A stretch of DNA of 64,000 bases from Chlamydiota bacterium (GCA_026398435.1 JAPLSW010000057.1:17715-81714), one strand, 5' to 3'. Counted from the stretch's first letter, positions 5,981 through 60,719 are shown. The notes: a model not told the origin generated them from the letters alone. Program-made: numbers and translations.

Positions 5981-6007
5981 TCGCTAACAAGTATATGTGG
6001 AATTCTC

Positions 6008-6502: not shown

Positions 6503-6522
6503 GTTAATCCCATAGAGGTGGC

Positions 6523-7481: not shown

Positions 7482-7566
7482 CGGAAGAGGTAGGATTCGA
7501 ACCCACGGTCGGTTGCCCGACAACTGTTTTCAAGACAGCCGCGATCGGCCACTCTGCCACTCTTCC
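7482..7566 (-). tRNA. tRNA-Ser (anticodon UGA), long variable arm
   Basis: Reverse complement is GGAAGAGTGGCAGAGTGGCCGATCGCGGCTGTCTTGAAAACAG...GGGTTCGAATCCTACCTCTTCCG. The 7-bp acceptor stem pairs, the anticodon loop is CTTGAAA, and the T-loop is GGTTCGAATCC. No CCA is encoded. Confidence 0.9.
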
Positions 7567-7614
7567 GTAAAAGATATAAGCGGCAAATTATACAATTTGC
7601 CGAAATAAAATCAA

Positions 7615-8634
7615 TTAAAACTGCGATAAAAAGCGAAGATCATTTTCAGCGAACTGCCGAATATCCTTCATACCATAGCGAAGCATAGCTAAACGCTCTA
7701 TCCCAAGGCCCCAGGCAAAGCCGGAATACTCCTCAGGATCGATCCCACCGTTCTTAAGAACTTCAGGATGCACCATGCCGGCACCAAGAATTTCAAGCCA
7801 CCCGGTTTGCTTGCAAAGCCGGCAGCCGGATCCATTACATGATGTACACTCAATGTCTACCTCAAGTCCTGGTTCAACAAATGGAAAATAGCTGGGGCGG
7901 AAACGAGTTTGCACCTTCTTTTTAAATAGCTTATTCAGGAACTCTTCCATGGTAGCCATTAGGTCTGCAAAAGACACTCCCTTATCGACATAGAGCCCTT
8001 CTATCTGGTGGAAAAAAACGTGAGATCTTGCACTGATGGTTTCATTGCGATACACAGTGCCTGGAGCTATGATCCGGATCGGAGGGGTGTGACTTTGCAT
8101 AACGCGAAGCTGGGTATTGGATGTATGGGAGCGTAAAAGCAGATCTTTTTCAATATAGAAAGTATCTTGCATGTCTCTTGCCGGATGATCAGGGGGGAAG
8201 TTCAATCCTTCATAGTTGTAATAGTCTGAGTCCATGTCTGGCCCGTATTGAACAGAGAAACCCATCTCAGAGAAAATCCCAATAAGCTCATCCCGAATAA
8301 GATTTAAAGGGTGCTTGCGCCCTAGAAATCTTTTGCGACCAGGAAGTGTCACATCGATTTTCTCTTCTTCGATTCTTTTAGCAAGCTCCGTTTGCATAAG
8401 AGCTTCAATCATCTGAGAGCAAAGAGCGGATATCTCTTCTTTTAATTCGTTGATAACTTTTCCAGCAAGGGGTCTTTCTTCTGGAGTGCAGTCCCTTAGG
8501 GACATCATTAGCTCTTGAACAGGACCTTTTTTTCCAAGATAGCGAACTTGCAAAAGATCAGCCTCTTTTGCCGTTTGGAGTTTTTCAAGTTCGTCTTTAA
8601 ATTGCTTGCGTAGGAGTGTAATTTTTTCTTTCAC
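7615..8634 (-). CDS. pheS: Phenylalanine--tRNA ligase alpha subunit
   Basis: Class II motifs are present (...FRPSYFPFVEPG..., GAGMVHP..., GFAWGLGIERLAM). GTG start. Lies downstream of rplT. Confidence 0.95.
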   Translation of the reverse strand: MKEKITLLRKQFKDELEKLQTAKEADLLQVRYLGKKGPVQELMMSLRDCTPEERPLAGKVINELKEEISALCSQMIEALMQTELAKRIEEEKIDVTLPGRKRFLGRKHPLNLIRDELIGIFSEMGFSVQYGPDMDSDYYNYEGLNFPPDHPARDMQDTFYIEKDLLLRSHTSNTQLRVMQSHTPPIRIIAPGTVYRNETISARSHVFFHQIEGLYVDKGVSFADLMATMEEFLNKLFKKKVQTRFRPSYFPFVEPGLEVDIECTSCNGSGCRLCKQTGWLEILGAGMVHPEVLKNGGIDPEEYSGFAWGLGIERLAMLRYGMKDIRQFAENDLRFLSQF

Positions 8635-8652
8635 AAATGCCTCTTTAGATAC

Positions 8653-8691
8653 AAAAAAAAAGCCTATGTCTTAGCAGTGCAAGACATAGGC
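8653..8691 (-). terminator. Hairpin plus T-run between rplT and pheS (terminator/attenuator)
   Basis: On the minus strand: GCCTATGTCTT-gcactgct-AAGACATAGGC followed by T9. Confidence 0.6.
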
Positions 8692-8711
8692 GAAATAAGG
8701 ATGTCAGAAAC

Positions 8712-9068
8712 TTAAGCTAAAGCTAGTTTTGCTGCGCCCGCTACTTCTGCAAAGCTATTTGGATCACGAATCGCCATTTCAGAGAGCATTTTGCGATTTA
8801 ACAAGCAACCTGCTAACTTAAGACCATTAATGAATTTGCTGTAGGAAATGCCGTTGATTTTTGCACCAACGCCGATTCTTACAGTCCAAAGTCTGCGAAA
8901 ATCTCTTTTCTTTTGTTTTCTGTGTACATAATTAAATGCCATTGCAGACATCACCGCGTCAGCTGTAAGACGTAGGTGGTTCTTACGATCGCCTACGAAG
9001 CCTTTAGCTTGTTTCAGCAATCTTTTTTTTCTGCGATGGGTAGCCACAGAATTCGTGACTCTTACCAT
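8712..9068 (-). CDS. rplT: 50S ribosomal protein L20
   Basis: MVRVTNSVATHRRKKRLLKQAKGF... is the canonical L20 N-terminus. Confidence 0.95.
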   Translation of the reverse strand: MVRVTNSVATHRRKKRLLKQAKGFVGDRKNHLRLTADAVMSAMAFNYVHRKQKKRDFRRLWTVRIGVGAKINGISYSKFINGLKLAGCLLNRKMLSEMAIRDPNSFAEVAGAAKLALA

Positions 9069-9090
9069 GGTAGTTCTCCAATTTTAAATT

Positions 9091-31679: not shown

Positions 31680-34600
31680 ATGGAAAAAGATCAGATCGTT
31701 TTAAAAAAAGTACGCGTTCATAACATAAAAAATGAAAGCCTGACCCTCGATAAAAACCAACTGATCGTATTTACCGGAGTCTCTGGCTCGGGCAAATCTT
31801 CCCTTGCCTTCGACACAATCTATGTAGAGGGTCAAAGAAGATACATAGAATCCCTTTCCACCTACGCAAGAAGGCATATGGGAGATCTTCCCAAACCCGA
31901 TGCCGACCTCATTGAGGGGATCTCTCCGACAATTGCCATCGAGCAAAAAACCACAGGAAAAAACCCCCGAAGTACCGTTGGGACGATGACAGGGCTCTAC
32001 GACTTCTTAAGAGTTCTTTTCGCAAGGGTGGGCATTGCCCACTGTCCCGTAAGCGGAGATCCAGTAAAGCCCCAAAGTACAAAACAAATCGCTGAGAAAA
32101 TATTCTCCCTTGCTCAGAGCGATAGGATCATCCTTTTAAGCCCCTTTGCTGAAGGAAAAAAAGGGGAGTTTAAAGAGGATTTTGCAGATCTTATCCGTAA
32201 GGGATATACAAGAGTAAGACTGGATGGCAAGATCATCGACCTTACAGAGGAAATTGCCCTCGATGGGAAAGTGGCTCACGACATCGATGTCGTAATCGAT
32301 AGAATAACGGCCGATGAAGAAAATAAATCTCGTCTTACCGAAGGGATCACAGCTGCCCTTGAGTTTGGTAAAGGTATTGTGAAGGTGCTGCATGTAGAAT
32401 CTAAGGAAGAAACCCTCTACTCTCAGCATGCCTTTTGCAAGGCCTCAGGACTATCGTATGGTCCCTTAGAGCCCTCTGATTTTTCTTTTAACCACCCTCT
32501 CGGAATGTGTCCTGCCTGTCAGGGCCTTGGAATCACCCAAGAGTTCGATGTAGAAAGAGTAATAAATCCTCTTCTTAGCATCTCTGAAGATTGCTGCCAG
32601 GTAGCAAGCTCCTATAAGACGGTACGCTATGGAAACATCTATGACAACTTAGCAAAGATCTATAATTTCAGTGTTACAACACCCTGGAATGAGCTTCCTG
32701 AAAAAGGAAAAAATGCGTTTCTTTACGGTATTGATAGCAAATGGACAAAGATGCTCTTTGTCCATCCCATCAAAAAAACAAGGTGGCATGACTATATCCA
32801 CTGGAAAGGTGTTCTCAATGAAGCTAAAGACAGATTCCAATCAGCACAAAGTGATCTCTATAGAAATAAAATGAAAGAGCTCATGCATGAGGCTCTATGC
32901 CCTGCATGCAAGGGAGCGAAAATCCGTCCCTATCCAGCCGCGACAACCATCGGTGGCAAAAGGATCTATGAGCTCACAAATCTACCGATTGGTGAGCTTT
33001 TAGCATTTGTTGAGTCTCTGTCTTTTGATCCCCTAGAAAAACTTATCGCTGATGAAGTGGTTAAAGAAATTAGAGAAAGGCTTTATTTCTTAAACCAAGT
33101 AGGCCTAAGCTACCTTTCCTTAGAGAGGACAGCACCTACCCTCTCTGGTGGAGAAGGGCAAAGGGTCCGCCTTGCCTCACAGATTGGCTCGGGCCTTGTC
33201 GGCTCTACCTATATCCTCGATGAACCCTCGATAGGTTTGCACCCAAGAGACAACCAGAAGCTTTTACTTACCCTCAAAAATCTTCGAGACAAAGGCAATA
33301 CTGTCATCGTCGTCGAACATGATGAAGAAACTATTGAATGTGCCGATACTGTTGTCGATGTCGGTCCCCTTGCCGGACAGCTGGGAGGAAAAATCATTAT
33401 ACAAGGGACAGTAAAAGAGTTGATGGAGTGTCCCGATTCTTTGACAGGTGGCTACCTATCAGGCAGACTCTCTATACCTATCCCTAAAAAAAGAAAAAAA
33501 CCCTCAAAGAAAAAGATCAAGATCCTAGGTGCGAATCACCACAACTTAAAAAATATCGATGTATCATTTCCTCTGGGTGTTTTTACAGCGGTTACTGGTG
33601 TTTCAGGATCGGGAAAATCATCGCTCGTAATAGACATCCTCTATCCTGCTTTAACCAATCACCTGCACCATGGGAAGATGTCTGTTGGCGCCCATAAAAA
33701 AATAGAGGGCCTTAGTAGTGTCGATAAAATCATTGCTATCGATCAATCTCCCATTGGTCGCACTCCGAGATCTAATCCCGCCACCTACATAAAGCTGTTC
33801 GATGAAATTCGCGATCTATTCTGCCAGCTTCCTGAAAGCAAAGCCTCCGGCTTTGATGCCGGACGGTTCAGCTTTAATGTCAAAGAGGGATCGTGTCCAT
33901 TCTGTGGCGGTATGGGGATGTGCAAGATCGACATGGACTTTATGGAAGATGAGTGGGTAAGTTGCGAGCACTGCCACGGGCAAAGATTCGATTGCAAAAC
34001 TCTCTCTATTCTGTTTAAAGGAAAAAACATTCACGATGTTTTAGAGCTTACCATTGCAGAAGCGGCCTCCTTTTTTTCCTCTATCCCTAAGATCACTGCA
34101 AAACTGGACCTGCTTTTAAAAGTTGGCCTTGACTACCTAAAGCTCGGCCAACCATCACCCACCCTATCGGGAGGTGAGGCCCAAAGAATTAAACTGGCCA
34201 AAGAGCTCTCTCGACCCTCCACCGGAGACACCTTTTACATACTCGATGAACCGACAACTGGCCTTCACTTCCATGACTGTAAAAAGCTCATCGAAGTGCT
34301 CCACTCTCTTGTTGAAAAAGGGAACACTGTGCTCGTCATCGAGCACAATATGGACCTTATTAAAACAGCAGACTGGATAATCGATATAGGCCCGGAAGCG
34401 GGGATGTACGGAGGGACTATTGTCTCTGAAGGAACACCCGAGAAAATTGCTGAAGAAGACTCTCCTACAGGAAGATCCCTAAAGACTGTGTTACATAAAC
34501 GAACATTTCATCCCTCACCGCAAAAAAACTCCTATCCAAAAGTTGAATTTATCGATGTGAAAGGGGCCTGCCAAAACAACCTTAAAAATCTCGATGTGAA

Positions 34601-37340
34601 AATTCCAAGAGATAAGATCACTGTATGTACGGGACCTTCTGGATCCGGTAAAAGCTCATTTGCCTTTGAGACGATCTATGCAGAAGGGCAACGCAGATAC
34701 ATAGAGTCACTTTCTCACTACGCCCGGCAATTTGTAAAGCAGATGCCCAAACCTAAAGTAGAAAGCATAGAGGGGCTGTCTGCCGCTATTGCTATCGAAC
34801 AAAAAAGCCACGCCGGCAACCCCCGAAGCACCATCGGCACGATGACAGAGACGTATGACTACCTGAGAGTGCTCTTTGCCCATCTAGGCACTGCCTACTG
34901 CCCAGAAACAGGGGAACTTATACAAGCCATCAGCAAAGAGTATGTAGTCAATAGACTGCTAGAGCTTCCTGAAAAAACTAAGCTCCATATCATGACTCCC
35001 TATACCCTTGGTAAACAAGAGACCTTTGAGCTAGCTAAAGAAAAACTGCTCCAGCAAGGTTTTTTACGCATACGGCTTAATGGCACTTTTTATGAGCTCG
35101 ATGAAGAAATCTCCTTCGATAAAAAAAGAAGCCAGGAGCTCTTACTTGTGATCGATAGGCTCATCGTATCACAAGATATCCGCAAAAGGCTCTTTGAAGC
35201 CCTCGAGCTTGCAGATAAAATCTCAAAAGGAACCATCATCGTAGCGGCAGATGGTAGCGACATGCTCTTCAACCTCTCCTTTGCAGTAGAGAGCACAGGT
35301 AAATCCTACCCCCCGATTACTCCCCACACCTTTTCTTTTAATACAGAGCAAGGGATGTGTTTAGACTGTTTAGGTTTGGGCTTCCAATATGGGGCGAATT
35401 TTGGAAGTAGCAAAGAGTTAATGGAGCTATCGCCCCTTGATCTTATCTCTTATCTTTGGAAAGAACATGCGACTAAAGAGTCCCTTCAGCTTTTCTTAAA
35501 AATTTTACAAGAGGAAGAGATTGACCCGGATGCCCCCATAGAATCTATGAATGCCTCCCAATTGCAATTTTTCTTCCATGGCGATACCAAAGAAAATTCT
35601 CCGAAGAAAAAAAAGGTCTATTTCCGTTGGAAAGGGATTAATAACACCCTCATCAACTACACAAAATCCCCTCATGGGCAGCTAAGGCCTATCCTTACTT
35701 CGATGATGGAGCAAACTACCTGCCTATCCTGCCAGGGAGCGCGACTCAATCCCCTTGCAAGAAACGTCAAAATCGGGAAAACAACCCTTCCCGATCTTTG
35801 CAAAATGTCTATTGAAAAATCCTCTGTTTTTGTAGACGCGCTAAAGATCTCCTCCCATCTCTTTTTACAAGAGACCCTAGACCAACTTAAAAATCGCCTC
35901 CGTTTCTTACTAGCTATTGGCCTTGGGTATTTAAGCCTTGAAAGAACAGCCCCAACACTCAGTGGTGGAGAAACTCAAAGAATTAGATTAAGCAGGCAGC
36001 TAGGCAGTGGACTTACCGGATGCATTTACGTGCTCGATGAGCCAACAATTGGACTCCATCCCCACAACAATGACCTGCTTAATAAGGCGCTAAAATCCCT
36101 TTGTGATCTGGGCAATACCCTGATCCTTGTAGAACACGATCCCCTAACGATTAAAATTGCCGATCATATCATCGACTTCGGTCCCGAAGCTGGGGTCCAC
36201 GGTGGGATGATCACAGCAGAGGGAAGCCTGCAGCAAATACTAAAAGACCCAAACTCCCTTACCGGAGCGTATCTTAGTGGAAGAAAAAAGATTCCCCTTC
36301 CAAGTTCTAGAAGAAGCTCTGATACCTACTTAACGGTCTTTAATGCCTCAATTCATAACCTGAAAGGATTCGATGTCGATATCCCCTGCCACGCAATCAC
36401 CTGCATCACGGGAGTGTCAGGGGCCGGCAAGTCGACCCTTCTGCTCGACATCATCTGTCCAGCGGTTGTTAAGACCCTTTTATCCAGAAGCAAAGAAGAT
36501 AAGATGCAAATCGGTGCAAGCATCGTAAAAGGGATTTCCAACTTCGACAAGTGTCTAGTTCTCGATCAAAACCCGATCGGTCAGACAAGTAGAGCCGATG
36601 TAAGCACCTATGTAGATGTTCTTACCCCCTTGCGCTACCTCTATGCCTCAGTGCCAGAAGCCAAAACAAGAGGGCTCCAACCGAAACATTTTAGCTTTAA
36701 CCACCGAAAAGGGATGTGTACCGGATGTTTTGGTCTTGGGACCAAAAACATCAGCTTGCAATTCCTCCCTCCCGTAAAGGTTCCTTGCGAGTCCTGCAAA
36801 GGATACCGCCTAAATCCTTTGAGCCTGCAGGTGTATTTTAAAGGCAAGCACCTAGGAGAGGTACTGCAAATGACAGTAGAAGAGGCCCTCTACTTTTTCG
36901 ATGCGATTCCTAAAATCCGAAGGATATTAGACACCCTGGTCTCTGTTGGTCTTGGCTATGTAAAGCTCGGCCAAGAGATATCCACACTTTCTGGTGGTGA
37001 AACGCAAAGGATACGCCTAAGTAGAGAACTTGCAAAACGATCAACCGGTAGAACGCTCTACCTTCTTGATGAGCCCTCCATCGGGCTCCATAGTGAAGAC
37101 ATCGCAAAGCTTGCCAAGATCTTCCAAGAGCTTGCTGACAAGGGCAACACCCTTATCATGGTAGAGCATAATCTCGATCTAATGGCAGCCTCCGATAAGG
37201 TGATCGACATAGGCCAGGATGCAGGAGAAAAAGGAGGAGAGCTTATAGCCCAAGGAACACCGGAAGAGGTGGCACTAAATAAGCGCTCTTATACAGCCAA
37301 ATACCTCAAGGAGCATCTGGAGATGTATAAGTTAAGCTAA
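31680..37340 (+). CDS. uvrA: Excinuclease ABC subunit A, tandem double-length fusion (two complete UvrA modules)
   Basis: Four Walker A sites (GVSGSGKSS x2, GPSGSGKSS, GVSGAGKST) and four LSGGE.QR signatures. Both halves carry the Zn-finger Cys pairs. The second module starts near nt 34540. Confidence 0.95.
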   Translation: MEKDQIVLKKVRVHNIKNESLTLDKNQLIVFTGVSGSGKSSLAFDTIYVEGQRRYIESLSTYARRHMGDLPKPDADLIEGISPTIAIEQKTTGKNPRSTVGTMTGLYDFLRVLFARVGIAHCPVSGDPVKPQSTKQIAEKIFSLAQSDRIILLSPFAEGKKGEFKEDFADLIRKGYTRVRLDGKIIDLTEEIALDGKVAHDIDVVIDRITADEENKSRLTEGITAALEFGKGIVKVLHVESKEETLYSQHAFCKASGLSYGPLEPSDFSFNHPLGMCPACQGLGITQEFDVERVINPLLSISEDCCQVASSYKTVRYGNIYDNLAKIYNFSVTTPWNELPEKGKNAFLYGIDSKWTKMLFVHPIKKTRWHDYIHWKGVLNEAKDRFQSAQSDLYRNKMKELMHEALCPACKGAKIRPYPAATTIGGKRIYELTNLPIGELLAFVESLSFDPLEKLIADEVVKEIRERLYFLNQVGLSYLSLERTAPTLSGGEGQRVRLASQIGSGLVGSTYILDEPSIGLHPRDNQKLLLTLKNLRDKGNTVIVVEHDEETIECADTVVDVGPLAGQLGGKIIIQGTVKELMECPDSLTGGYLSGRLSIPIPKKRKKPSKKKIKILGANHHNLKNIDVSFPLGVFTAVTGVSGSGKSSLVIDILYPALTNHLHHGKMSVGAHKKIEGLSSVDKIIAIDQSPIGRTPRSNPATYIKLFDEIRDLFCQLPESKASGFDAGRFSFNVKEGSCPFCGGMGMCKIDMDFMEDEWVSCEHCHGQRFDCKTLSILFKGKNIHDVLELTIAEAASFFSSIPKITAKLDLLLKVGLDYLKLGQPSPTLSGGEAQRIKLAKELSRPSTGDTFYILDEPTTGLHFHDCKKLIEVLHSLVEKGNTVLVIEHNMDLIKTADWIIDIGPEAGMYGGTIVSEGTPEKIAEEDSPTGRSLKTVLHKRTFHPSPQKNSYPKVEFIDVKGACQNNLKNLDVKIPRDKITVCTGPSGSGKSSFAFETIYAEGQRRYIESLSHYARQFVKQMPKPKVESIEGLSAAIAIEQKSHAGNPRSTIGTMTETYDYLRVLFAHLGTAYCPETGELIQAISKEYVVNRLLELPEKTKLHIMTPYTLGKQETFELAKEKLLQQGFLRIRLNGTFYELDEEISFDKKRSQELLLVIDRLIVSQDIRKRLFEALELADKISKGTIIVAADGSDMLFNLSFAVESTGKSYPPITPHTFSFNTEQGMCLDCLGLGFQYGANFGSSKELMELSPLDLISYLWKEHATKESLQLFLKILQEEEIDPDAPIESMNASQLQFFFHGDTKENSPKKKKVYFRWKGINNTLINYTKSPHGQLRPILTSMMEQTTCLSCQGARLNPLARNVKIGKTTLPDLCKMSIEKSSVFVDALKISSHLFLQETLDQLKNRLRFLLAIGLGYLSLERTAPTLSGGETQRIRLSRQLGSGLTGCIYVLDEPTIGLHPHNNDLLNKALKSLCDLGNTLILVEHDPLTIKIADHIIDFGPEAGVHGGMITAEGSLQQILKDPNSLTGAYLSGRKKIPLPSSRRSSDTYLTVFNASIHNLKGFDVDIPCHAITCITGVSGAGKSTLLLDIICPAVVKTLLSRSKEDKMQIGASIVKGISNFDKCLVLDQNPIGQTSRADVSTYVDVLTPLRYLYASVPEAKTRGLQPKHFSFNHRKGMCTGCFGLGTKNISLQFLPPVKVPCESCKGYRLNPLSLQVYFKGKHLGEVLQMTVEEALYFFDAIPKIRRILDTLVSVGLGYVKLGQEISTLSGGETQRIRLSRELAKRSTGRTLYLLDEPSIGLHSEDIAKLAKIFQELADKGNTLIMVEHNLDLMAASDKVIDIGQDAGEKGGELIAQGTPEEVALNKRSYTAKYLKEHLEMYKLS

Positions 37341-37539: not shown

Positions 37540-38868
37540 TTATTCTGTAACATTTAAACGAAAGCGAGGAAAAAGACTGACTGCGTACAAAGGATAATTA
37601 ACAAGTTTTCCATCTAGAGTAAAATTTCTTAAGGAGGCCCTAGACAATACTAAAGGAGCATTTTCTTCTTTTGAAAATTTCCCATCATATACAGTAAGAC
37701 TTTTCTTCTTTTTAGAGAAACCAGCCTTTACCTCAAGAGGGAAAATATGATGTTCTGTGGAAATTACAAAATCCACTTCAGCAATCCCCTCACTTGTCCA
37801 ATAATAGAGTTCATTAAAATGCGTATCATGAAGTTCTATAGCTACAAAATTTTCAGCTAATGCCCCCTTGAATTCCTGAAAAAGTTGATCCCCTTCTAAT
37901 ATAATTCTGGGATCCAACTTGCTCATTGCCCCAAGCAATCCTACATCCAGTAAAAACACCTTAAATGCTTGCTTATCCGCATAAGCATCTAAGGGGAGTT
38001 TAGGAGTCGAAATAAGATTTGCCATAATGATAAGTCCGGCACTCTTTAGCCACTGCAAAGATGTTTCAAATTCCCTAGCCCTAGCGCTTTTGCGAATGGC
38101 TGAAAAAACGAACTTTTTATTCTCTTTAGCCAATTGACTGGGGACCGAGTCCCAGATAGCCATAATTTTCATTACTTCATCTTTTGGTGCATGTTTTGCA
38201 AAGTCTAATATGTAAGCATCGAGAATTTCTTTTTGTACCACTCTAACTTGGCTTAGATCGTCTGTTTTTAAATAGGCAGCAACAGCTTCAGGCATACCCC
38301 CTATAATGAAGTAATATTTAAGAAGGGAGGTTAATTTGTTATGAAAAATTTCCGAGATTGGTTTTGGATGATCGATCTCTTCGAGCATCATAACTAACTC
38401 TTGCTCGCCGATGGCCGTCAAAAATTCGAAAAAATTGAGTGGGGCAAGATCTAGGAAATTCACTTTGCCAACAGGAAATCCTTTCGTTAACTTTACACCT
38501 AGTAAAGAACCGGCTGTAGCCAAATGATACTCATTCTTCTTTTCACAAAAATATTTCAAGGAAGCTAAAGCCTCAGGACACTCTTGAATTTCGTCTAATA
38601 CAATGAGTGTAGAACCGGGCTGGATCTTTTTTTTGAAATAGATGCCCAGTTCTTTAATAATTCTGTCAGGATTTAAATCTTCCTTAAAAATACTTGCTAA
38701 ATGAGGGGTTTCATCAAAATTGATATAAACATAATCCTCATACTCACGCCTGGCAAATTCGGTCAAAATATAGGTTTTACCTACTTGACGTGCACCCCTT
38801 AATACCAAGGGCTTACGCAAATTTGAGCTTTTCCACTGAAGTAAGTTTTTATAAAATTCTCTTTCCAT
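37540..38868 (-). CDS. AAA+ ATPase with DUF4143 domain (COG1373-like)
   Basis: LRGARQVGKTY Walker A, LIVLDEIQ Walker B, and a C-terminal ...EVDFVI....I.PLEVKAG restriction-endonuclease-like block. Confidence 0.8.
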   Translation of the reverse strand: MEREFYKNLLQWKSSNLRKPLVLRGARQVGKTYILTEFARREYEDYVYINFDETPHLASIFKEDLNPDRIIKELGIYFKKKIQPGSTLIVLDEIQECPEALASLKYFCEKKNEYHLATAGSLLGVKLTKGFPVGKVNFLDLAPLNFFEFLTAIGEQELVMMLEEIDHPKPISEIFHNKLTSLLKYYFIIGGMPEAVAAYLKTDDLSQVRVVQKEILDAYILDFAKHAPKDEVMKIMAIWDSVPSQLAKENKKFVFSAIRKSARAREFETSLQWLKSAGLIIMANLISTPKLPLDAYADKQAFKVFLLDVGLLGAMSKLDPRIILEGDQLFQEFKGALAENFVAIELHDTHFNELYYWTSEGIAEVDFVISTEHHIFPLEVKAGFSKKKKSLTVYDGKFSKEENAPLVLSRASLRNFTLDGKLVNYPLYAVSLFPRFRLNVTE

Positions 38869-39534: not shown

Positions 39535-40557
<1,023 letters not shown>

Positions 40558-40652
40558 TCAGCATTACTTAAGAAATAACTATTTTATCCATCCCATTGTT
40601 GTTGTATAGCGATATCTTTGGGGAGCCATTTGACTACCGGTGCCCTGAGCGG

Positions 40653-40663
40653 CCCCCCCCCCC
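40653..40663. repeat. C11 homopolymer in the divergent trpS / HECT-gene intergenic region
   Basis: ...gagcggCCCCCCCCCCCagagg... counted directly. The surrounding intergenic sequence is AT-rich. Confidence 0.95.
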
Positions 40664-40823
40664 AGAGGAGCAATAATCCAACTAAACCTTACTTCAAGAA
40701 TAAAAATCACATTTCAAACGAATAGCGACGAAATTTTAATTAAATAATTAAAGAACAATTAAATGTATAAATAAATATAAATTATAATGCTTTTCTTGTT
40801 ATTATAAAAAAAAGAAGGTCGTC

Positions 40824-43100
40824 ATGTCTAGCATAAGCCCTACCCCCCCTGATAGACGGCCTGTCAATACCGATCTTCATGAAATAAATCAGATTCTCGG
40901 AAATTATAAAAATACCCCAGAGAATAACAGAAAGATACAAAGGCTTTGTGAAAATACTATCAAAAACGTTAGCGCTTCCCCTTCAGAAGGCATTGATATC
41001 AATAGGATTACTCTATTTAAGAGTTGCCTGTCAACCCTAAAAACAAAGGGGGTTTTTCATAGAATATTTACGACAAGCAAAACTGAAACCGCACTAACCA
41101 AATTACAGGGTACGTTACAAAATTTCGAAACAAGGAGATCAAATGTTCTTAATGCTGTTAAATCTGGTGAATTAAGAATTCAGAATGTTGCCGAAGAGTT
41201 CCAAAACGACCGAGAAATAGTTCTTGCGGCTGTGACTCAATGTGGCTATCAACTTTGTCATGTTCCCGAAAAATTCCGAGACGACCCTGCTATAGTTCTT
41301 GCGGCTGTGACTCAAGGTGACGAAGCACTTGAGTTTGCTAGCCAAAGACTCCGAGACGACCCTGATATAGTTCTTGCGGCTGTTGGTCACTATCGACATG
41401 GACTTAGCTATGCTAGCGAAAGACTCAAAGACGACCCTGCTATAGTTCTTAGGGCTGCTTCTCACGATCTCAATGCACTTCTCCTTGCGAGCAAAAGACT
41501 TCAAAACGACCAAGCACTAATTATTGTGACTCTGCAGTCTCACTTATCTAAAGAGGAGCTTACTCAGACAGATATAAATTGCTTCGGTTTGGAAGCCGCT
41601 AAAAATGGTCATATAGAGGTTCTGCAGTTTCTCTTATCTGAAGGAAGAACTTTATCACCATATAATCTAGGTATAACCCTTGAATACGCAGCTAGAAAGG
41701 GCAATCTAAACGTCTTAAATGTTCTCTTACCTCAAGGAAGATCGATATATCAATCAGATCTAGGAACCGCAGTAAGCGTTGCTGCTGCAAATGGTCATTT
41801 AGAAGTTATTCGTTTTCTCTTATCTGACGGAAGAGCTCTAAGTATTGAACAGAGAGAGAGCCTTATCCTATCGATGTCAATTGCAGGCAATATAGGAGTT
41901 TTAGAGCTTTTACTGCAGCAAGGAGCGATCCACAGAGCTGCAATAGATTCCTCATACTCGAATGCAGGAAGACATCTTCCCCCTGGGGAAGAACAAGTCA
42001 TTCTTATCGGCCGGATTAGAGATATGCTCCGCTCGGCTCCTTTGCTCCCAGAGGATACTCAAGGGACGAACCGAGCGCCGGCCAGAGAGGAAGATGCTTT
42101 ATATACGACATTTGCTGAAGTGAAAGAAAACCCAACGAGATATCTAGAACTTGTAACAACACAATTTCCAAGAAGGGTTGTATTATTAGATTCCCCAGGG
42201 ACCATCGACCTCGGAGGAGTTACAAAAGAGTTTATCTCAACACTTATGAAATCCTTGCTAGAAAAAACCGCCTTTCCAATTACAGAAACAGGATTCCCCA
42301 AGCAGATACCCAGAATAAATCCGGAAACAAGCAAGCCTGAAGTAAATGAAGAAAGCCGGGCAATCTATCAAAGGCTCGGTAAGTTTTACTCTCTTCTTGA
42401 TCAGAAAAATACAGATAGAACGGATAAATTTGTGACAGGAACTGTGTTTCATCCGGGCTTTTTTCAGATTGTAAAAAAGGTCGGAGCAGGCGCTACTCCC
42501 GCGGATCTAAGAAAAGAGGCTGCACAACAGATCATAGCCGCTGAGAGCGAAAAGCCCTCCTGGGCCGCTGTGATTTTGGATCCGGAAAATCGAGTAGAAT
42601 TAGAGGCTTATGCGGCGGCGTTGGGATGCACTCCCGCCGAAGCCCAAGAATATTTAGCATCGACAGAGGCTCTTATAGATCAGGTTGTGGCTGCAGCTAG
42701 ATCTTTTTACGAAGGAGTTACACCTGCCTTCCGAATAAAAATACAATGCACTGATCCATTGGTTCTTGCCCACATGGTTCAAGGAGAGCCCATTTCAAAA
42801 GTGAGTCTCCTTGCAGCTCTTAGCAGAAGACCTGAACTTTCCGAAGAGCGCTATAGCTGGGTACTAGACAAAATCGAGACATCAGATGAAGCATGGAGAA
42901 AGAAATTCGTTAAAGCAATTACCGGTAATGAAGTGCTTTCTCCGGGTATGAAAATCTCTATAGGTGCGTGCTGGCGAGGGGGCGGGAGATTTGAAATACA
43001 CACCTGTTTCAACTCCCTTGACATTCCAACCGATGTGGAAAATGCAGATCTTCTAGCAGCACTAGATAGCGTTCTAGATGAAGGATATAACACCGCTTAG
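40824..43100 (+). CDS. DUF4116-repeat / ankyrin-repeat / HECT-domain protein (putative E3 ubiquitin ligase effector)
   Basis: Four 24-25-aa repeats (D[PR].IVLAAV...A(S)..L[RK]D), four ANK-like repeats (AAKNGHIEVLQFLLSEG etc.), then HECT blocks DLGGVTKEF..., FVKAITGNEVLSPGM and FEIHTCFNSLDIP. Confidence 0.8.
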   Translation: MSSISPTPPDRRPVNTDLHEINQILGNYKNTPENNRKIQRLCENTIKNVSASPSEGIDINRITLFKSCLSTLKTKGVFHRIFTTSKTETALTKLQGTLQNFETRRSNVLNAVKSGELRIQNVAEEFQNDREIVLAAVTQCGYQLCHVPEKFRDDPAIVLAAVTQGDEALEFASQRLRDDPDIVLAAVGHYRHGLSYASERLKDDPAIVLRAASHDLNALLLASKRLQNDQALIIVTLQSHLSKEELTQTDINCFGLEAAKNGHIEVLQFLLSEGRTLSPYNLGITLEYAARKGNLNVLNVLLPQGRSIYQSDLGTAVSVAAANGHLEVIRFLLSDGRALSIEQRESLILSMSIAGNIGVLELLLQQGAIHRAAIDSSYSNAGRHLPPGEEQVILIGRIRDMLRSAPLLPEDTQGTNRAPAREEDALYTTFAEVKENPTRYLELVTTQFPRRVVLLDSPGTIDLGGVTKEFISTLMKSLLEKTAFPITETGFPKQIPRINPETSKPEVNEESRAIYQRLGKFYSLLDQKNTDRTDKFVTGTVFHPGFFQIVKKVGAGATPADLRKEAAQQIIAAESEKPSWAAVILDPENRVELEAYAAALGCTPAEAQEYLASTEALIDQVVAAARSFYEGVTPAFRIKIQCTDPLVLAHMVQGEPISKVSLLAALSRRPELSEERYSWVLDKIETSDEAWRKKFVKAITGNEVLSPGMKISIGACWRGGGRFEIHTCFNSLDIPTDVENADLLAALDSVLDEGYNTA

Positions 43101-43280: not shown

Positions 43281-43418
43281 ATGTCAACAGAAGAGACTCC
43301 CCCAACTCACATTGGACCCTATAAGGTCGTAGAGAAAATTGCAACCGGCGGTATGGGAGAGATCTATCTTGTTTACGACGCTTGCTCAGATCGAAACACT
43401 CAAATACCCCACCCTTAA
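43281..43418 (+). pseudogene. pknD: Detached N-terminal fragment of pknD (glycine-rich loop), out of frame with the main ORF
   Basis: MSTEETPPTHIGPYKVVEKIATGGMGEIYLVYDACSDR..., then TAA at 43416. The main ORF is in the +1 frame. Confidence 0.65.
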
Positions 43419-46035
43419 AGAAAGATTTTTAAGAGAAGCTAAGATCGCGGCCAAAATGGCCCACCCCTCTATCATCCCCATCTACTCAATTCATAGCGAT
43501 AGCGATGAAATCTACTATACCATGCCCTACGTTGAGGGGGAAACCTTAAAGCAGATCATAAGAACCTGTCTTGAAGAAGAAAAAGCGGGAAAAGTCGTTC
43601 ATCCTATCGGAAAATCGATTCCAGCTTTAATGAGGATTTTTTTAAATATATGCCAGGCTATTGCCTACTGCCATAGCAGAGGTGTGCTCCATCGAGATGT
43701 AAAACCGGAAAATGTGATCGTAGGAAAGTTTGGAGAGACCTTTATCTTAGATTGGGGCCTGGCCGATTTTGTGGATAGCCCAACGCATGATTCTAAGGAG
43801 AAGTTCCCCACGGTAGAATGTGTAGATCTTACAAGACCTGGCAAAATCCCCGGGACACTTGCCTACATCCCTCCGGAGAGGATCCTTGGGAAGCCCTCCT
43901 CTTTTGCAACCGATATCTACGCTCTTGGAGTGATCCTTTATCAGCTCCTAACCCTAAGGCTACCTTTCCATAGAATCTCTAATAAAAAACTTAAAAAGCA
44001 GATCGAAAAAGAAGAATTCATCGATCCTCTTGATAGAGCCCCTTACCGAGATATCCCCCTTGAACTTGCTCATATCGCAAAGATTTGCCTTTCCCCAAAT
44101 CCCGAAGCCCGCTACCGCAGGGTTGAGGATTTGCTACTCGACATAGAAAGTTACATCGCAGGAAGAGGGCAGTGGTCCTTTTTAGAGCCACTGGATGTTG
44201 CGAATAAATCGGATTGGGAATTCCAAGAAAACATCTTAGTAGCAAAACATACAGCGCTTACCCGCAGCGCAGACCTCATGGAATGGGTCACTATCATGCT
44301 CTCTAAAAAAGGGTTCTCCGGTAATTTTAAGATAGAAACGTCCGTAGAGCTTGGGAGCCAAAGCCAGGGAATAGGCTTTTTGTTAAATGTCCCGGAGAGT
44401 AGCGAAAGAAAAGGACTTTTAGAAGATAGCCACAGCCTGTGGATCGGCACAAAAAACAGTCCGGGGTGTACTCTCTTTCGCTCCAATGTGCAGATCTTAT
44501 CGGCACCTGATAGTTATTTGGAAGAAAACGTCTGTCATAAAATACGGATTGAGCGGGTAGATAGCCACATGCGTGTGATCCTTGATGACAAGCTCGTCCT
44601 CGACTATCTGACACATATCCCTTTTACCGGTCCCCACTTTGGTCTTTTACTGAAAGATGCAGATCTTAAAATCGATCCCATTAAAGTGTATGTGACAAGT
44701 CCTAACATCATGATCAACTGCTTAAAAGTGCCCGACACATTTTTATCGACGAAAAATTTCAGTAAAGCCCTTGGTGAGTACCGAAAGATCAGCGCCTCCT
44801 TTCCTGGAAGAACAGAAGGAAGAGAAGCATTATTTCGCGCAGGGATCACCTTAGTAGAAGAAGCCTCTGAATCCAAATCCTCTTCTAAAAAAAATCAACT
44901 CTTGCAGCAAGCTTTAGAGGAGTTTGGGAAACTAAGAAACACTCCCGGAGCCCCCTTAGAATATTTAGGGAAATCCCTTGTCTATAAAGCAAGTGGAGAG
45001 ATCGAAGAAGAGAGCAAATGCCTAGAGCTATGTCTTAGAAAATATACAAAACACCCCTTAAGATATTTAATCGAAGAAGAGCTCATCTTTCGCCTCCATG
45101 AAGCGGCCACACAAAATAGAGAAGCCGCGTATCATTTTGCTCTTCTGTCACTGCGCCATATGCCCCATATTTTTGGCCAGGCACAGAATAAAGTTCTCCT
45201 GGATAGCCTCCAAAGTCACTGGGAGCCTCTTTCCTTCATAGAGCCCCTAACTTCTTCTACAATTGATGAGCAGTATATCCAGCTCAGCATCCATTTAGCC
45301 TTTTGGCTTGCAAAACCCATCACCCTTGTCGAGATCATCGAGTCTGCAACAAACCCCCTATTACTTAGTAATGCCCTATTTTGTTTATTGCAGCTGGGTT
45401 GCGTAAGTTTTGCAGAAGAAAACCTCCACTTCTTAAAAGATGACCCGGAAAGGCTCTCTTCCCTATCTCTACTTATTAAGCTTTGTAAAAAGCAGATACC
45501 ACTCGCAGAGGCATTAGCATCTCTTGAAAAAAAGGTAGACTTTTCCTCAAAAAGAGCTCTTATGCATATCTTAGAAAAAGAGCTCCTCCCCGGCAAAAAT
45601 AAAATCCCGGTCGAGCTATTACAAAAGCTATCAAACAAAGACCATGATTTTACAGGGTATTACATCCGCTCCCTGATACTTGCTGGAGAGTACTCAGAAG
45701 CTAGCACTGCTTTAGGGCATGCTAAAGGACTTTCTGAAGAAGAAGAAAACTACCTTACCGGATGCCTGCTGGCTCACGATGAGGGAAAAGAGTCCTCTCT
45801 TAACTATCTCATGGAATATGCACCCTCCTTTGAGTTTAGTTCCTACTTTGTGATGGAAAATGGAACATTTTCCTTAAAAAATGCCAGGGATCTTTTCTTC
45901 TGGGAAAAACTCCAACTGCTGCGCCAAATGATCCTGTTTAGCTACTGCGCTAACATGCAAAAAGAAACGAAAAGCTGGCTCAAACTTTACCAAGGACAAC
46001 TGTCTTATGTTACTGCCACATATTGTCCTACCTGA
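43339..46035 (+). CDS. pknD: PknD-type Ser/Thr protein kinase with large C-terminal domain (N-terminus disrupted in this sequence)
   Basis: RFLREAKIAAKMAHPSIIPIY, HRDVKPENV, DWGLA and GTLAYIPPE motifs. The first ~14 codons of the listed ORF are an out-of-frame reading of the G-loop. Confidence 0.8.
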   Translation: MQPAVWERSILFTTLAQIETLKYPTLKERFLREAKIAAKMAHPSIIPIYSIHSDSDEIYYTMPYVEGETLKQIIRTCLEEEKAGKVVHPIGKSIPALMRIFLNICQAIAYCHSRGVLHRDVKPENVIVGKFGETFILDWGLADFVDSPTHDSKEKFPTVECVDLTRPGKIPGTLAYIPPERILGKPSSFATDIYALGVILYQLLTLRLPFHRISNKKLKKQIEKEEFIDPLDRAPYRDIPLELAHIAKICLSPNPEARYRRVEDLLLDIESYIAGRGQWSFLEPLDVANKSDWEFQENILVAKHTALTRSADLMEWVTIMLSKKGFSGNFKIETSVELGSQSQGIGFLLNVPESSERKGLLEDSHSLWIGTKNSPGCTLFRSNVQILSAPDSYLEENVCHKIRIERVDSHMRVILDDKLVLDYLTHIPFTGPHFGLLLKDADLKIDPIKVYVTSPNIMINCLKVPDTFLSTKNFSKALGEYRKISASFPGRTEGREALFRAGITLVEEASESKSSSKKNQLLQQALEEFGKLRNTPGAPLEYLGKSLVYKASGEIEEESKCLELCLRKYTKHPLRYLIEEELIFRLHEAATQNREAAYHFALLSLRHMPHIFGQAQNKVLLDSLQSHWEPLSFIEPLTSSTIDEQYIQLSIHLAFWLAKPITLVEIIESATNPLLLSNALFCLLQLGCVSFAEENLHFLKDDPERLSSLSLLIKLCKKQIPLAEALASLEKKVDFSSKRALMHILEKELLPGKNKIPVELLQKLSNKDHDFTGYYIRSLILAGEYSEASTALGHAKGLSEEEENYLTGCLLAHDEGKESSLNYLMEYAPSFEFSSYFVMENGTFSLKNARDLFFWEKLQLLRQMILFSYCANMQKETKSWLKLYQGQLSYVTATYCPT

Positions 46036-57600: not shown

Positions 57601-58899
57601 TTAGGCCCTAAGTATTTCAATGAACTCTTCGTAAACCTGATGAATTGTTATTCGATGAGCGTCTTTTGGAACAAGCATCCGCTGTATAAGTCTTTGCATT
57701 TCCGGGGGCTCTGTCGGCGGAACATCGACAAGTGGCACCTGCCCACCTGGCAAAGGTTTAAAAGTGATTTGATCCATATATTTTAAAATAGATAAGGCTG
57801 AGGTTGAATCTTCAGCATTCTCAATCCAAGGAGGGAGCTCTCCAGAAAATAGCTGATAAAAAATGACCCCGAGTGACCAAACATCTAAAGGATGGTCATT
57901 AGCCCTCTCTTGTTTTTCCTCGTAAATCGATTGGGACCTTAAAAAATCAGCATCTGCTCTAGCCAAGTGCTTATGATGAACAGGTATTCCCCTAGATATT
58001 TTATCTTTTAAATAATCCACTTCCGCCATAGCTGATGTAAAATCTTCCATAGCATCAAGGGCGACTAAATAATCTGGAGAACAATACCAGACGGTTGTGT
58101 TGTGGTTACGTCTCCAACTCGCGTCTGATAAGTGTGCATAAGAACCGTAATCTCCAATAACTAAGTTAAGCTTTCCTTCTATATCTACTTCCAAATAAAT
58201 ATTTTCAGGTTTTAAGTCGCCATGAATCGCAACATGAGCATGGATCGTCATAAGCCCCCTAATCATTTGGAGAGCGGCGCTACAACGCCTTGTATCTAAA
58301 GAGGAAAATCTCATCGCCTTAGATAAACTACCGGCATTATACAAAGGGCTTAGAACTAAAGTATTTACCATACCCTTACTATCAGGAATACGGTAGGAAA
58401 TAGTTCTCTCTAAGGACAAAAGATTCTTCATACCTCGATGAGATTCCAGAACAGCGATTTCCCTATATGGCTCATAATCTGACTGTAATGGTAAAGGACC
58501 AAAGATCCTCTGAAAGCTGTAGCCTGTCAATATTTTCCCTGCAACAAGATCTATAACCGGAAAAACTGTTTTAAAAGAGCCTTTACCAATAGGGACTCTT
58601 GAAAGAACGATAATATCGTTCTTTGGAAAAACAAAATAAACAGAAGATCTATACACATCTTCCCAGATAAAAGGGCTAGTTGAAGTTTCGAAATGATGCA
58701 TGATCTGCTCTTGTCGAACCTGAAAGATCACCTTGATTCGCTCGATTTCTCTTTGATGCCATCCGAATTCTGTTAAAGAGATCTCACCTGCAGGACTTAT
58801 AACAAATTGTGAGGTTGCAGCAGAAGACACAGGAGTCGGCGCTTCTTCTCTTAGATCACAGAAAGTATGGATAAGAGGAAATGTTGGACTAGTTACCAT
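57601..58899 (-). CDS. Eukaryotic-like Ser/Thr protein kinase (divergent)
   Basis: IGKGSFKTVF G-loop, HGDLKPENIYL catalytic loop, IGDYGS (DFG variant) and DVWSLGVIFYQLFSG. Confidence 0.7.
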   Translation of the reverse strand: MVTSPTFPLIHTFCDLREEAPTPVSSAATSQFVISPAGEISLTEFGWHQREIERIKVIFQVRQEQIMHHFETSTSPFIWEDVYRSSVYFVFPKNDIIVLSRVPIGKGSFKTVFPVIDLVAGKILTGYSFQRIFGPLPLQSDYEPYREIAVLESHRGMKNLLSLERTISYRIPDSKGMVNTLVLSPLYNAGSLSKAMRFSSLDTRRCSAALQMIRGLMTIHAHVAIHGDLKPENIYLEVDIEGKLNLVIGDYGSYAHLSDASWRRNHNTTVWYCSPDYLVALDAMEDFTSAMAEVDYLKDKISRGIPVHHKHLARADADFLRSQSIYEEKQERANDHPLDVWSLGVIFYQLFSGELPPWIENAEDSTSALSILKYMDQITFKPLPGGQVPLVDVPPTEPPEMQRLIQRMLVPKDAHRITIHQVYEEFIEILRA

Positions 58900-59026: not shown

Positions 59027-60568
59027 TTAATTTTGAGCTGTTTCTAATACAGGCTTGCCAAAGTTTGGTTTGACAGTTTCTTTGCCACTGACCTTTTTAA
59101 AGAGGCCTCCGACTTTAACGACAGAGGTGATCCAAGAAATCAGAACAACGAATAAGATAATCGCAATATACGGAGTAGAAAGGGCTACACTTCCAAGCAT
59201 TATAATAAGACCTTGGTAGGCAAGAGATGACCCGGATTTTCCAATGCCTGAGCCAAGTCCGTCAATTGCCGCTTTTCCCTTGGTCTTAGCATCAGAATCA
59301 AGAGGTAAAAATGCAAGTTCTTTAGAGGCATCAAACAGGGAATATTTACCCGCCTTGCTAAGACAATTCTGCATGGAGCCAAAATACACTGTTAATACAA
59401 AGGGGGAAGCCCCGAATAAAGTCATGGCAAAGGCGGTAAGGCCATTTCCACAGAATAAGAAGGTAAAGAAGCCAACGGCCATTATAGCCATAATAGCAGG
59501 GGTTAAAATCGCAGTAAATGTCCAGCCTAGACGATTAACCATCATGGAAAAAAGGAGCCCACCAACTGTTGCAACGATTCCAATACCGACAGTAATAGAG
59601 TTCATATGAACGAGCATCTCATTTGGGTCAGTAAAATATCTTTTAAGCTGCTCTTTCCAAAGGATGTCGGTGATATTAATCGAGATGTTATACCCTAGAA
59701 CGATAATAGCTAGGCAAGTGAGGTATCTTGATTTAGAAATATATTTTATACTATCGCGAATGGAAAGTCTGATCTTTTCTTTAGGGACATAGGTTGTATC
59801 TAATGCTTTTTCTTTATCAATCACATTTCTATTGATCCAATAGAAAAGGATCATGGCGCTAATGCCAAGGACCGTTAGCATGATAACAATGTTTACCAAG
59901 GTTTGTCTCCAAGCATCCCCTGAGGCTGAAGCTGGTGATAAAGAGAGAAACTTACCACAAATAATCCCTATAGCCCCCCCAAGAATGGGAGCGACATTAG
60001 ATCCAATATTTAAAATACCGTAGGTCCTCTTAGCTTGAGAGACATTGGTTACATCGTTGGCAAATCCCCAAAAAAGGATCGAAAGAACAACAGCTGCCCA
60101 AAGCTCTGAAATCACATAAAATGTAGTAAAGGACCAGTTGCGTATCATCGCTATAAGACCTTTAAATCCCGCTGGAAGATTCGCTGTTAACCAGTCGCCT
60201 AAACGATCTAGATGAAGCGTGTCACTGTTAGGATGAATAACGAACGCAAAGAGGATAAAATAGGCTAGAAACGAGGAGATAATAATATAAAATACTGTTT
60301 CTCTGTTAAAAACTCGATATAACCTAGTATATATCCAGGTGGCTGCGAAAGCTGCCGGTAGCATCCCCCATACTTTAAGAAAAGGGATGACCTCAGCCCC
60401 AGAATGTTTGGCAGTAAGAACGATCGTGTCCTTAAGATTTCGTAATACACTGTAGCATATACAAAGTAAAAAAAGAAGAATGAGCATAGATACTACTTTT
60501 TTGAGCTCTGATCGATGTACTGGCCATAGAAGAGAACGGAGAAATCCAAATTTTTTTTCCGAAGACAT
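59027..60568 (-). CDS. ntt: NTT-family nucleotide (ATP/ADP) translocase
   Basis: N-terminus KKFGFLRSLLWPVHRSELKKV...LRNLKDTIV and 12 TM helices are typical of chlamydial/rickettsial Npt/Tlc. Start moved to ATG 60568. Confidence 0.9.
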   Translation of the reverse strand: MSSEKKFGFLRSLLWPVHRSELKKVVSMLILLFLLCICYSVLRNLKDTIVLTAKHSGAEVIPFLKVWGMLPAAFAATWIYTRLYRVFNRETVFYIIISSFLAYFILFAFVIHPNSDTLHLDRLGDWLTANLPAGFKGLIAMIRNWSFTTFYVISELWAAVVLSILFWGFANDVTNVSQAKRTYGILNIGSNVAPILGGAIGIICGKFLSLSPASASGDAWRQTLVNIVIMLTVLGISAMILFYWINRNVIDKEKALDTTYVPKEKIRLSIRDSIKYISKSRYLTCLAIIVLGYNISINITDILWKEQLKRYFTDPNEMLVHMNSITVGIGIVATVGGLLFSMMVNRLGWTFTAILTPAIMAIMAVGFFTFLFCGNGLTAFAMTLFGASPFVLTVYFGSMQNCLSKAGKYSLFDASKELAFLPLDSDAKTKGKAAIDGLGSGIGKSGSSLAYQGLIIMLGSVALSTPYIAIILFVVLISWITSVVKVGGLFKKVSGKETVKPNFGKPVLETAQN

Positions 60569-60643
60569 GCTTTGCCACTGGGTTGAGGTTTGCTTAAACC
60601 CTTCCACAATACAAAATTTCCTTTTTATATTCAAAGAAAAAAA

Positions 60644-60677
60644 TTCAAAAAAAGAGACCGCTTTTACCGGTCTCTTT
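60644..60677 (-). terminator. Rho-independent terminator of the 362-aa gene
   Basis: On the minus strand: AAAGAGACCG-gtaaaag-CGGTCTCTTT followed by a T-run. Confidence 0.75.
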
Positions 60678-60719
60678 AAATTCAATTTTTATTTAATGGT
60701 AAATAGTTTTTTTAAATCT

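Follow-up and report, generated by a model that had tools for sequence, protein, structure and literature searches.

A eukaryote-type HECT ubiquitin ligase domain joined to DUF4116 and ankyrin repeats in a Chlamydiota bacterium: sequence family, predicted structure and possible effector role

Can a bacterium carry a genuine eukaryote-type HECT ubiquitin ligase domain? The bacterial HECT-like ligases (SopA, NleL, bHECTs) are treated as mimics without motif-level similarity to eukaryotic HECTs, and the question is raised by a gene located in a stretch of 64,000 nucleotides from a Chlamydiota bacterium (GCA_026398435.1, JAPLSW010000057.1:17715-81714; this whole stretch is called the window in the following). 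The encoded protein, MCX6990747.1, had been interpreted in a preliminary description, made from the DNA sequence alone, as a eukaryote-type HECT domain fused to DUF4116 and ankyrin repeats and not as a mimic of the SopA/NleL type. Family profile, Foldseek comparison and the alignment of the catalytic cysteine all support this interpretation. We regard it as almost certain that this is a true homologue of the HECT fold in which the catalytic Cys is conserved, and as likely, at a clearly lower level of confidence, that the protein is a secreted modular E3 ubiquitin ligase effector of an obligate intracellular chlamydia, with this chain of claims taken as a whole.

Relationship of the C-terminal domain to HECT ligases

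The gene and the elements of its HECT domain are located as follows.

40824-43100, + strand: complete coding sequence with ATG start, 758 amino acids (list of open reading frames; identical to GenBank MCX6990747.1)
42090-42773, + strand: HECT N-lobe, aa 423 to about 650 (Foldseek, column conservation, weak HMMER placement on E6AP 560-583 and Rsp5)
42774-43097, + strand: HECT C-lobe, aa about 651-758 (family profile against the HUWE1 C-lobe, E=4.4e-7; positions 135-282 of the Pfam HECT profile)
43005-43007, + strand: TGT codon of Cys728, the predicted catalytic residue (ubiquitin thioester) in the HTCFN motif (read directly; HUWE1 alignment)
43086-43088, + strand: codon of Tyr755 in the GYNTA tail, aromatic at -4 relative to the C-terminus (column conservation)

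The open reading frame has exactly the limits given for it earlier, and the protein consists of an N-terminal helical region followed by the DUF4116 repeats, the ankyrin repeats and the 336-aa C-terminal HECT domain. All three HECT motif blocks quoted in the preliminary description were located in the translation, LDSPGTIDLGGVTKEFISTLMKSL at aa 455-478, FVKAITGNEVLSPGM at aa 695-709 and FEIHTCFNSLDIP at aa 723-735, and the TGT codon places Cys728 30 residues from the C-terminus, as proposed. The GenBank label, "DUF4116 domain-containing protein [Chlamydiae bacterium]", does not mention the HECT domain.

Comparison at the level of the family revealed significant sequence similarity to eukaryotic HECT ligases. 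A profile of seven family sequences matched the C-lobe of HUWE1 with E=3e-4, and a profile of 24 sequences searched against the PDB matched HUWE1 with E=4.4e-7, Cys on Cys. Eukaryotic HECT ligases made up 54 of the 56 matches that the larger profile obtained at E<=10, with HUWE1, Pub2, E6AP, ITCH, WWP1/2, Rsp5, SMURF1/2, NEDD4/4L, AREL1, TOM1, HERC5/6, HECTD3 and HECW2 among them. The window sequence HTC728FNSLDIP is aligned with HTCFNQLDLP of HUWE1 and Cys728 lies on the HUWE1 catalytic Cys, so that the alignment named earlier as a check on the assignment came out in its favour. The significant similarity spans the last N-lobe helices and the C-lobe (profile positions about 173-320); the DLGGVTKEF block further upstream in the N-lobe is placed by HMMER on E6AP 560-583 and is where the alignment with Rsp5 begins, in both cases short of significance. 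Relatives with 35-39% identity to the window protein over the HECT domain exceed the gathering score of the Pfam HECT profile PF00632 (23.9 bits, which is an operational cut-off and not a biological feature), with 32.2 bits for P0004, 35.2 bits for P0005 and 39.8 bits for a paralogue from the Chlamydiia metagenome-assembled genome (MAG) L004. In total, 24 of 65 sampled family members match PF00632 at E<=1e-3.

The structure predicted with AlphaFold2 (AF2) matches eukaryotic HECT folds across both lobes. The model of aa 423-758, computed with seven sequences, has a mean predicted local distance difference test (pLDDT) score of 88.9 and a predicted template modelling (pTM) score of 0.87; the full-length model, computed with 113 sequences, reaches pLDDT 84.9 and pTM 0.70, with pLDDT about 95-98 in the HECT part. 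Two Foldseek searches against the PDB, of which the top 50 matches each were considered, yielded eukaryotic HECT domains in all 100 cases (E about 2e-6, probability 1.00, 340-400 alignment columns covering both lobes), including Ufd4, UBR5, NEDD4, HUWE1, WWP2, SMURF1, TRIP12, Rsp5 and HACE1. The model displays the bilobed N-lobe/C-lobe arrangement of a HECT fold, and the structure prediction suggested in the preliminary description thereby agrees with its claim.

These searches also bear on the possibility that the protein belongs to the bHECT family (SopA, NleL, VsHECT and relatives) and is a mimic rather than a descendant of eukaryotic HECTs. The features by which bHECTs were selected (10.1101/2023.06.05.543783) are a C-terminal bilobed ligase domain, in which about 30 residues follow the Cys, and the setting of a bacterial effector, and the window protein has them: the Cys at 728 of 758 residues and the inter-lobe linker are both present. 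The same two features are common to eukaryotic HECTs and are not discriminating. In contrast, HTCFN, FxxxxTG and DxGG are eukaryotic HECT motifs, the N-terminal part of the protein consists of all-helical repeats and not of a beta-helix, and neither the 56 PDB sequence matches (E<=10) nor the top 50 of either fold search contain a single bHECT. The earlier statement that there is no relationship of the SopA/NleL type was therefore borne out; we rejected bHECT membership and consider it very improbable.

The eukaryote-type assignment has to be weighed against several observations that count against it. The window protein alone scores only 15.3 bits with PF00632 (E=0.016, aa 603-736 on profile positions 135-282), and a phmmer search of its C-terminal 376 aa against the PDB reached only E about 0.7, with all matches to HUWE1 and the HTCFN Cys on the HUWE1 catalytic Cys. 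For the first half of the N-lobe there is no significant sequence match to HECT profiles, and its assignment comes from the predicted structure. The moderate whole-domain TM-scores (0.35-0.63, with HUWE1~Ub at 0.62 and Ufd4 at 0.63 as the best) and the identity of 13-18% also reflect divergence. The spread of the TM-scores is expected, because the HECT lobes swing relative to each other. The preliminary description had made its case dependent on a significant profile match; the single protein comes close to lacking one, whereas the family-level evidence is significant. Since the single-sequence match is below the threshold, the significance of the HECT call derives from family-level and structural evidence only.

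Which positions are retained can be seen from 113 aligned members, whose identity to the window protein ranges from 20 to 77%. The catalytic Cys is present in 112 of the 113 members, preceded by Thr in 103 and by His two residues upstream in 93. In the N-lobe, D462 and G465 are each conserved in 112/113 members, and the block D462-x-G464-G465 / K468 / F470 is invariant in the family according to column conservation. Position -4 from the C-terminus, at which the role of Phe in eukaryotic HECTs is established knowledge, is aromatic in 99 members (Tyr in 72, Phe in 27), and the distance from the Cys to the C-terminus is 30 residues in the window protein and 30-36 in most members. Such a pattern would be expected of active HECT ligases. 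It might also be possible that the domain is inert, a HECT-fold protein that is not a ligase and serves as a scaffold or as a decoy that sequesters E2~Ub or ubiquitin of the host, while the ankyrin and DUF4116 repeats do the work. The 13-18% identity to canonical HECTs and the sub-threshold Pfam score would be compatible with this. On the other hand, Cys, HxC context, -4 aromatic residue and Cys spacing have been retained at about 20-25% identity, and they therefore argue for selection on catalysis and not just on the fold. We consider an inert domain unlikely.

Modules, family and locus

The regions located upstream of the HECT domain are the following.

40824-41184, + strand: N-terminal region, aa 1 to about 120, a candidate type III signal region (AF2 secondary structure, pLDDT, hydropathy)
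41185-41534, + strand: DUF4116 repeats, four to five copies of 25 aa (75 nt), aa about 121-237 (PF13475, tandem repeats, AF2)
41565-42032, + strand: ankyrin module, four to five repeats of about 31 aa, aa about 248-403 (Pfam, PDB matches, DNA repeat, AF2)

The DUF4116 repeats named in the preliminary description were confirmed by Pfam (PF13475, 95.3 bits with a cut-off of 24.9, E=1.5e-27, four stretches). Its statement that their DNA is near-identical did not hold, since the four to five copies of the 75-nt direct tandem repeat at 41185-41534 are 61-82% identical. For this region AF2 predicts helix pairs in an alpha-solenoid with lower confidence (pLDDT about 50-64). The proposed ankyrin repeats were found with Ank_2 (PF12796, 44.3 bits with a cut-off of 27.3, E=2.7e-11) and Ank (PF00023, 37.1 bits with a cut-off of 21.1), and DARPin and ankyrin structures in the PDB match aa about 241-372 down to E=4e-33. 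Here the DNA contains a 93-nt repeat in three copies (41595-41840), and the predicted helix pairs have pLDDT values of 91-97.

The HECT domain is a member of a large family. A profile search of 1.84 billion cluster representatives (clusters at 50% identity) yielded 646 clusters at E<=1e-3, 281 at E<=1e-10 and 124 at E<=1e-30. The word-indexed homologue search found 6-8 relatives and strongly under-represents the family; a scan of the genome collection, carried out with the single strict pattern FEI[HQ]TC[FA]N, found three loci and is no measure of prevalence. Every member with an organism name comes from Chlamydiota (Chlamydiae bacterium, Chlamydiales, Chlamydiia, Simkaniaceae). Family members are annotated as "hypothetical protein", as "ankyrin repeat domain-containing protein" or, in the case of the window protein, as "DUF4116 domain-containing protein", and standard annotation therefore overlooks the HECT domain. 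Those members that score above the Pfam HECT threshold are probably flagged in domain databases already.

The N-terminal modules of the family vary. Ankyrin repeats were found in 41 of 65 sampled members and leucine-rich repeats (LRRs) in 3/65, and in this sample DUF4116 occurs only in the window protein. Several members, among them P0003 (MCX6991416.1), P0027, P0105, P0112 and P0120, have Inc-like bilobed hydrophobic N-termini at residues about 25-90 in place of ankyrin and DUF4116 repeats. A bilobed hydrophobic domain of about 40-60 residues near the N-terminus is the defining trait of chlamydial Inc proteins, and the layout of these paralogues suggests, from sequence features, a HECT ligase that would be anchored on the inclusion membrane. 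P0003 is 55% identical to the window protein and probably represents another copy within the same MAG, judged from the adjacent GenBank accession block only; within the window itself no second HECT copy was found. The family is a divergent HECT subfamily, named so far only from Chlamydiota, with new fusions, namely DUF4116 plus ankyrin here and Inc-like anchors or LRRs elsewhere.

A distant member, P0124 (919 aa), is located on an 85-kb bacterial-type contig (JACCDV010984982.1, L007) of assembly GCA_013565675.1, which consists of nearly a million contigs. It probably stems from a chlamydial symbiont hidden in the genome project of a eukaryotic host.

The window is chlamydial. Its genes include trpS, a pknD-like kinase gene followed by NUDIX and valS, and genes for pyruvate kinase, cytochrome bd and murB. 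The HECT gene is flanked by trpS on the - strand and by pknD on the + strand. At the same trpS/pknD locus, a related genome (L006) carries an orthologue (3900-7131, split by a scaffold gap), in which the HECT domain is 77-80% identical. The start MSSISP of the window protein corresponds to MSSIGP in this orthologue, giving the common form MSSI(S/G)P. The middle part is unrelated and consists of about 350 aa of unknown sequence and about nine ankyrin repeats, with no DUF4116. With the HECT domain conserved and the middle part different, the catalytic module seems therefore to have been kept and the targeting module exchanged at a fixed locus. In the Chlamydiia MAG L004, two Ank-HECT paralogues of 801 and 1042 aa lie in tandem (3339-9086), and a 1.8-Mb contig of an "uncultured Chlamydiaceae" MAG (L005) contains a frameshifted remnant of the C-lobe (7917-8408). 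Tandem copies and remnant point to birth-and-death dynamics in the family.

HECT, ankyrin and DUF4116 are mostly eukaryote-associated domains, and the GC content at third codon positions of the HECT gene (0.335) is somewhat below that of its neighbours (0.40-0.46). Both would agree with eukaryotic host DNA that entered a chlamydial MAG through faulty binning or assembly, or with a very recent transfer from the host. However, the gene is an intron-less open reading frame with a Shine-Dalgarno-like site and has trpS and pknD as neighbours on a chlamydial contig of 85 kb. The same 758-aa protein is present in NCBI and recurs in two Logan assemblies, where the genes downstream of it are also the same. 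These are assemblies of two independent read sets, and in both of them the identical gene lies beside pknD and NUDIX; the orthologue of the related genome is situated at this very locus. Overall GC content equals that of the genome (0.433 for the gene, 0.417 for the window), there are hundreds of related clusters, the named ones only chlamydial, and no eukaryotic HECT structure is more than 18% identical. A contamination or chimera is effectively refuted by synteny, by the independent assemblies and by composition, and we consider misplaced host DNA and a very recent transfer alike extremely improbable.

The HECT family is old and has diversified within Chlamydiota, and does not represent a recent one-off transfer. 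The preliminary description had assumed a horizontally acquired true HECT domain. Its second half is supported, but the gene is not an isolated or recent acquisition: it is one member of a large and old chlamydial family with a GC content matching that of the genome. A donor clade cannot be named, since no solved HECT is more than 18% identical to the window protein. The HECT fold is otherwise considered to have arisen in eukaryotes, without a prokaryotic forerunner (PMC4327156). Members down to about 20% identity, several chlamydial lineages, compositional amelioration and a wide gap to eukaryotic HECTs would allow the reading that the chlamydial family is ancient and dates from early Chlamydiota, either as the closest surviving prokaryotic relative of HECT or through transfer from stem or early eukaryotes; we hold this to be improbable. 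If it were true, a rooted phylogeny of the several hundred clusters could bear on the origin of HECT.

Upstream of the gene lies the following region.

40543-40823, + strand: intergenic region between the divergent trpS and HECT genes, 281 bp, AT-rich (read directly; same sequence in an independent Logan contig)

Its GAAGG at 40814-40818 resembles a Shine-Dalgarno site and precedes the ATG of the HECT gene by 5 nt. The orphan-type AT-rich promoter proposed earlier is unsupported: AT-rich sequence and GAAGG are visible, but a consensus promoter scan, a type of scan that catches chlamydial promoters poorly, found no sigma-70-like site on the + strand upstream of the gene. The region also contains a homopolymer of 11 C (40653-40663), identical in the independent contig L001 (about 85-95), which could be a slippage-prone site, with no length variation seen. 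In the orthologous region of the related genome this tract is missing, and a tandem duplication of about 43 bp is present instead (L006, about 3668-3755).

Several other genes in the window deserve mention. The pknD-like kinase gene directly downstream of the HECT gene (43339-46035) is called with 927 aa in Logan and with 898 aa from the first TTG in the list of open reading frames. A second eukaryote-like Ser/Thr kinase (431 aa) adjoins a TLC ATP/ADP translocase (57601-58899 and 59027-60685, both - strand); this translocase is a hallmark of energy-parasitic intracellular bacteria. At 31680-37340 (+ strand) a double-length UvrA of 1886 aa is encoded, in which two UvrA units are fused, and which is kept in the related genome; double-length UvrA is typical of Chlamydiae. 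Between uvrA and trpS lies a DUF4143/AAA_14 ATPase gene (37540-38868, - strand, GC 0.369), of which the related genome has a 197-aa DUF4143 fragment; the gene was probably inserted as an accessory or mobile element. At 5189-5731 (+ strand) there is a zeta-toxin-like open reading frame.

A possible route from export to ubiquitin transfer

Taken together, the modules would fit an effector that acts in four steps. First, the protein would be exported to the cytosol of the host by way of its unstructured N-terminus, with the chlamydial type III system as the probable route. Second, the DUF4116 solenoid and the ankyrin repeats may bind one or more host proteins as putative substrates. Third, the N-lobe would bind a host E2 charged with a modifier, presumably ubiquitin, which would be passed onto Cys728 as a thioester. 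Fourth, the C-terminal tail with Tyr755 at position -4 might aid transfer of the ubiquitin to a lysine of the substrate or of ubiquitin itself.

The indications that the protein is an effector are indirect: the disordered Ser/Pro/Thr-rich N-terminus, the missing Sec signal, the Inc-like paralogues, the exchange of the targeting module in the related genome, and the tandem copies of L004 together with the remnant in L005. According to the AF2 model the first 12 or so residues of MCX6990747.1 are disordered and rich in Ser, Pro and Thr, and helices follow. Hydropathy showed neither a signal peptide nor a transmembrane segment in the protein, and the absence of a signal peptide had been stated in the preliminary description. 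Such an N-terminus fits type III export and is not evidence for export. A host-dependent lifestyle can be read from the TLC ATP/ADP translocase, the double-length UvrA and the pknD-valS arrangement.

Three observations make the effector role less certain. No type III secretion genes or chaperone were found among the annotated open reading frames of the window. The window protein does not have the bilobed hydrophobic domain of the Inc type; its maximal 19-mer hydropathy is 1.79 and lies inside the ankyrin region. Finally, no biochemical test of any family member was found in the searchable literature, which consists mostly of publications outside subscription journals.

Besides ubiquitin, the HECT domain might conjugate another ubiquitin-like modifier (NEDD8, an ISG15-like or a protist-specific one), or the protein might act inside the bacterium on bacterial targets. 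HERC5 and HERC6, which are ISG15 ligases, are among the PDB matches, and sequence fixes no modifier specificity. However, the best matches are ubiquitin-specific HECTs (HUWE1, the NEDD4 family, E6AP and Ufd4), and no genes for ubiquitin, E1 or E2 are shown in the window, which makes an intrabacterial cascade unlikely. We consider these alternatives together as quite unlikely, and a secreted ubiquitin ligase remains the interpretation that we prefer.

Environmental chlamydiae carry a large and diversified eukaryote-type HECT family with swappable modules, including ankyrin repeats, LRRs, DUF4116 and Inc-like anchors. If these proteins are active, they would add a third E3 class to the chlamydial effector repertoire, and their small HECT domains (336 aa), which can be expressed in bacteria, would be useful for mechanistic work on chain specificity. 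They would likewise provide a data set on the movement of HECT domains among eukaryotes, giant viruses and intracellular bacteria. A ligase family of this kind is not conceptually surprising for Chlamydiae, yet it would be a new E3 class for the phylum and a genuine eukaryote-type HECT family in bacteria.

Comparison with known systems

The bHECTs (SopA, NleL, PvHECT, VsHECT, EaHECT and PsHECT) are bacterial, host-delivered, bilobed and Cys-dependent ligases (10.1101/2023.06.05.543783), and like them the window protein has a bilobed domain with the Cys about 30 residues from the C-terminus. The typical N-terminal part of bHECTs is a beta-helix, whereas the repeats found here are all-alpha, and bHECTs lack motifs of the HTCFN type.

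The ubiquitin effectors of Chlamydiae and Legionella are similar in that they belong to amoeba-associated intracellular bacteria and fuse eukaryote-derived domains to ankyrin, LRR and other repeats. Protochlamydia has F-box and U-box proteins (PMC1781473) and Simkania has SneRING (PMC12591485), while MavJ of Legionella is a candidate of the HECT type (PMC7542358). In contrast to the window protein, the effectors reported for Chlamydiae are of the RING, U-box, F-box and deubiquitinase (DUB) types; a prior description of a HECT-type ligase in Chlamydiae was not found in the same searchable literature.

Amoeba giant viruses offer a further parallel. Among viral models (BFVD, searched with Foldseek) the best matches are HECT-like proteins of such viruses, with Mimivirus R349 at E=2.4e-6 and a TM-score of 0.52. 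Like the chlamydial domain they have a full HECT fold in a non-eukaryotic, amoeba-associated setting, and they reach similar Foldseek scores. With 8-14% identity, however, they are no closer to it than cellular HECTs, and their N-terminal architectures differ. Most of these viral folds are uncharacterised (Mimivirus R349/R349b, Megavirus courdo11, Hokovirus); an annotated HECT is found in Tupanvirus, Fadolivirus and pithovirus-like viruses.

The closest resemblance is to the eukaryotic HECTs themselves (HUWE1, the NEDD4 family with Rsp5, E6AP, Ufd4/TRIP12 and UBR5). The predicted bilobed fold extends over the whole 336-aa domain, which is located at the extreme C-terminus as in these proteins. 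Common to both are the C-lobe motifs FxxxxTG and HTCFNxLDxP, an aromatic residue at position -4 and the aligned Cys, which is followed by about 30 residues, and the DxGGxxKEF block of the N-lobe resembles the DEGGVSKEFF region of E6AP. Differences are found as well: the window protein is bacterial, 13-18% identical to any solved HECT and below the Pfam threshold; its domain is slightly compact, and its tail reads G-Y-N-[IT]-A with Tyr in place of Phe at position -4. The chlamydial family seems to be discrete, since the best score of a eukaryotic PDB entry, rescaled to the library of 1.84 billion, would lie near or beyond E about 1e-3.

In its layout, with N-terminal ankyrin repeats that bind substrates and a C-terminal HECT domain, HACE1 is the eukaryotic protein to compare, and 41/65 sampled chlamydial members share this arrangement. 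HACE1 has no DUF4116, and its structure (8pwl) ranked 33rd and 20th in the two fold searches, behind HUWE1, NEDD4, UBR5 and E6AP. A HACE1-like origin of the combination is therefore not supported and, with no specific affinity to HACE1, the joining of ankyrin repeats to HECT in Chlamydiota looks like an independent assembly.

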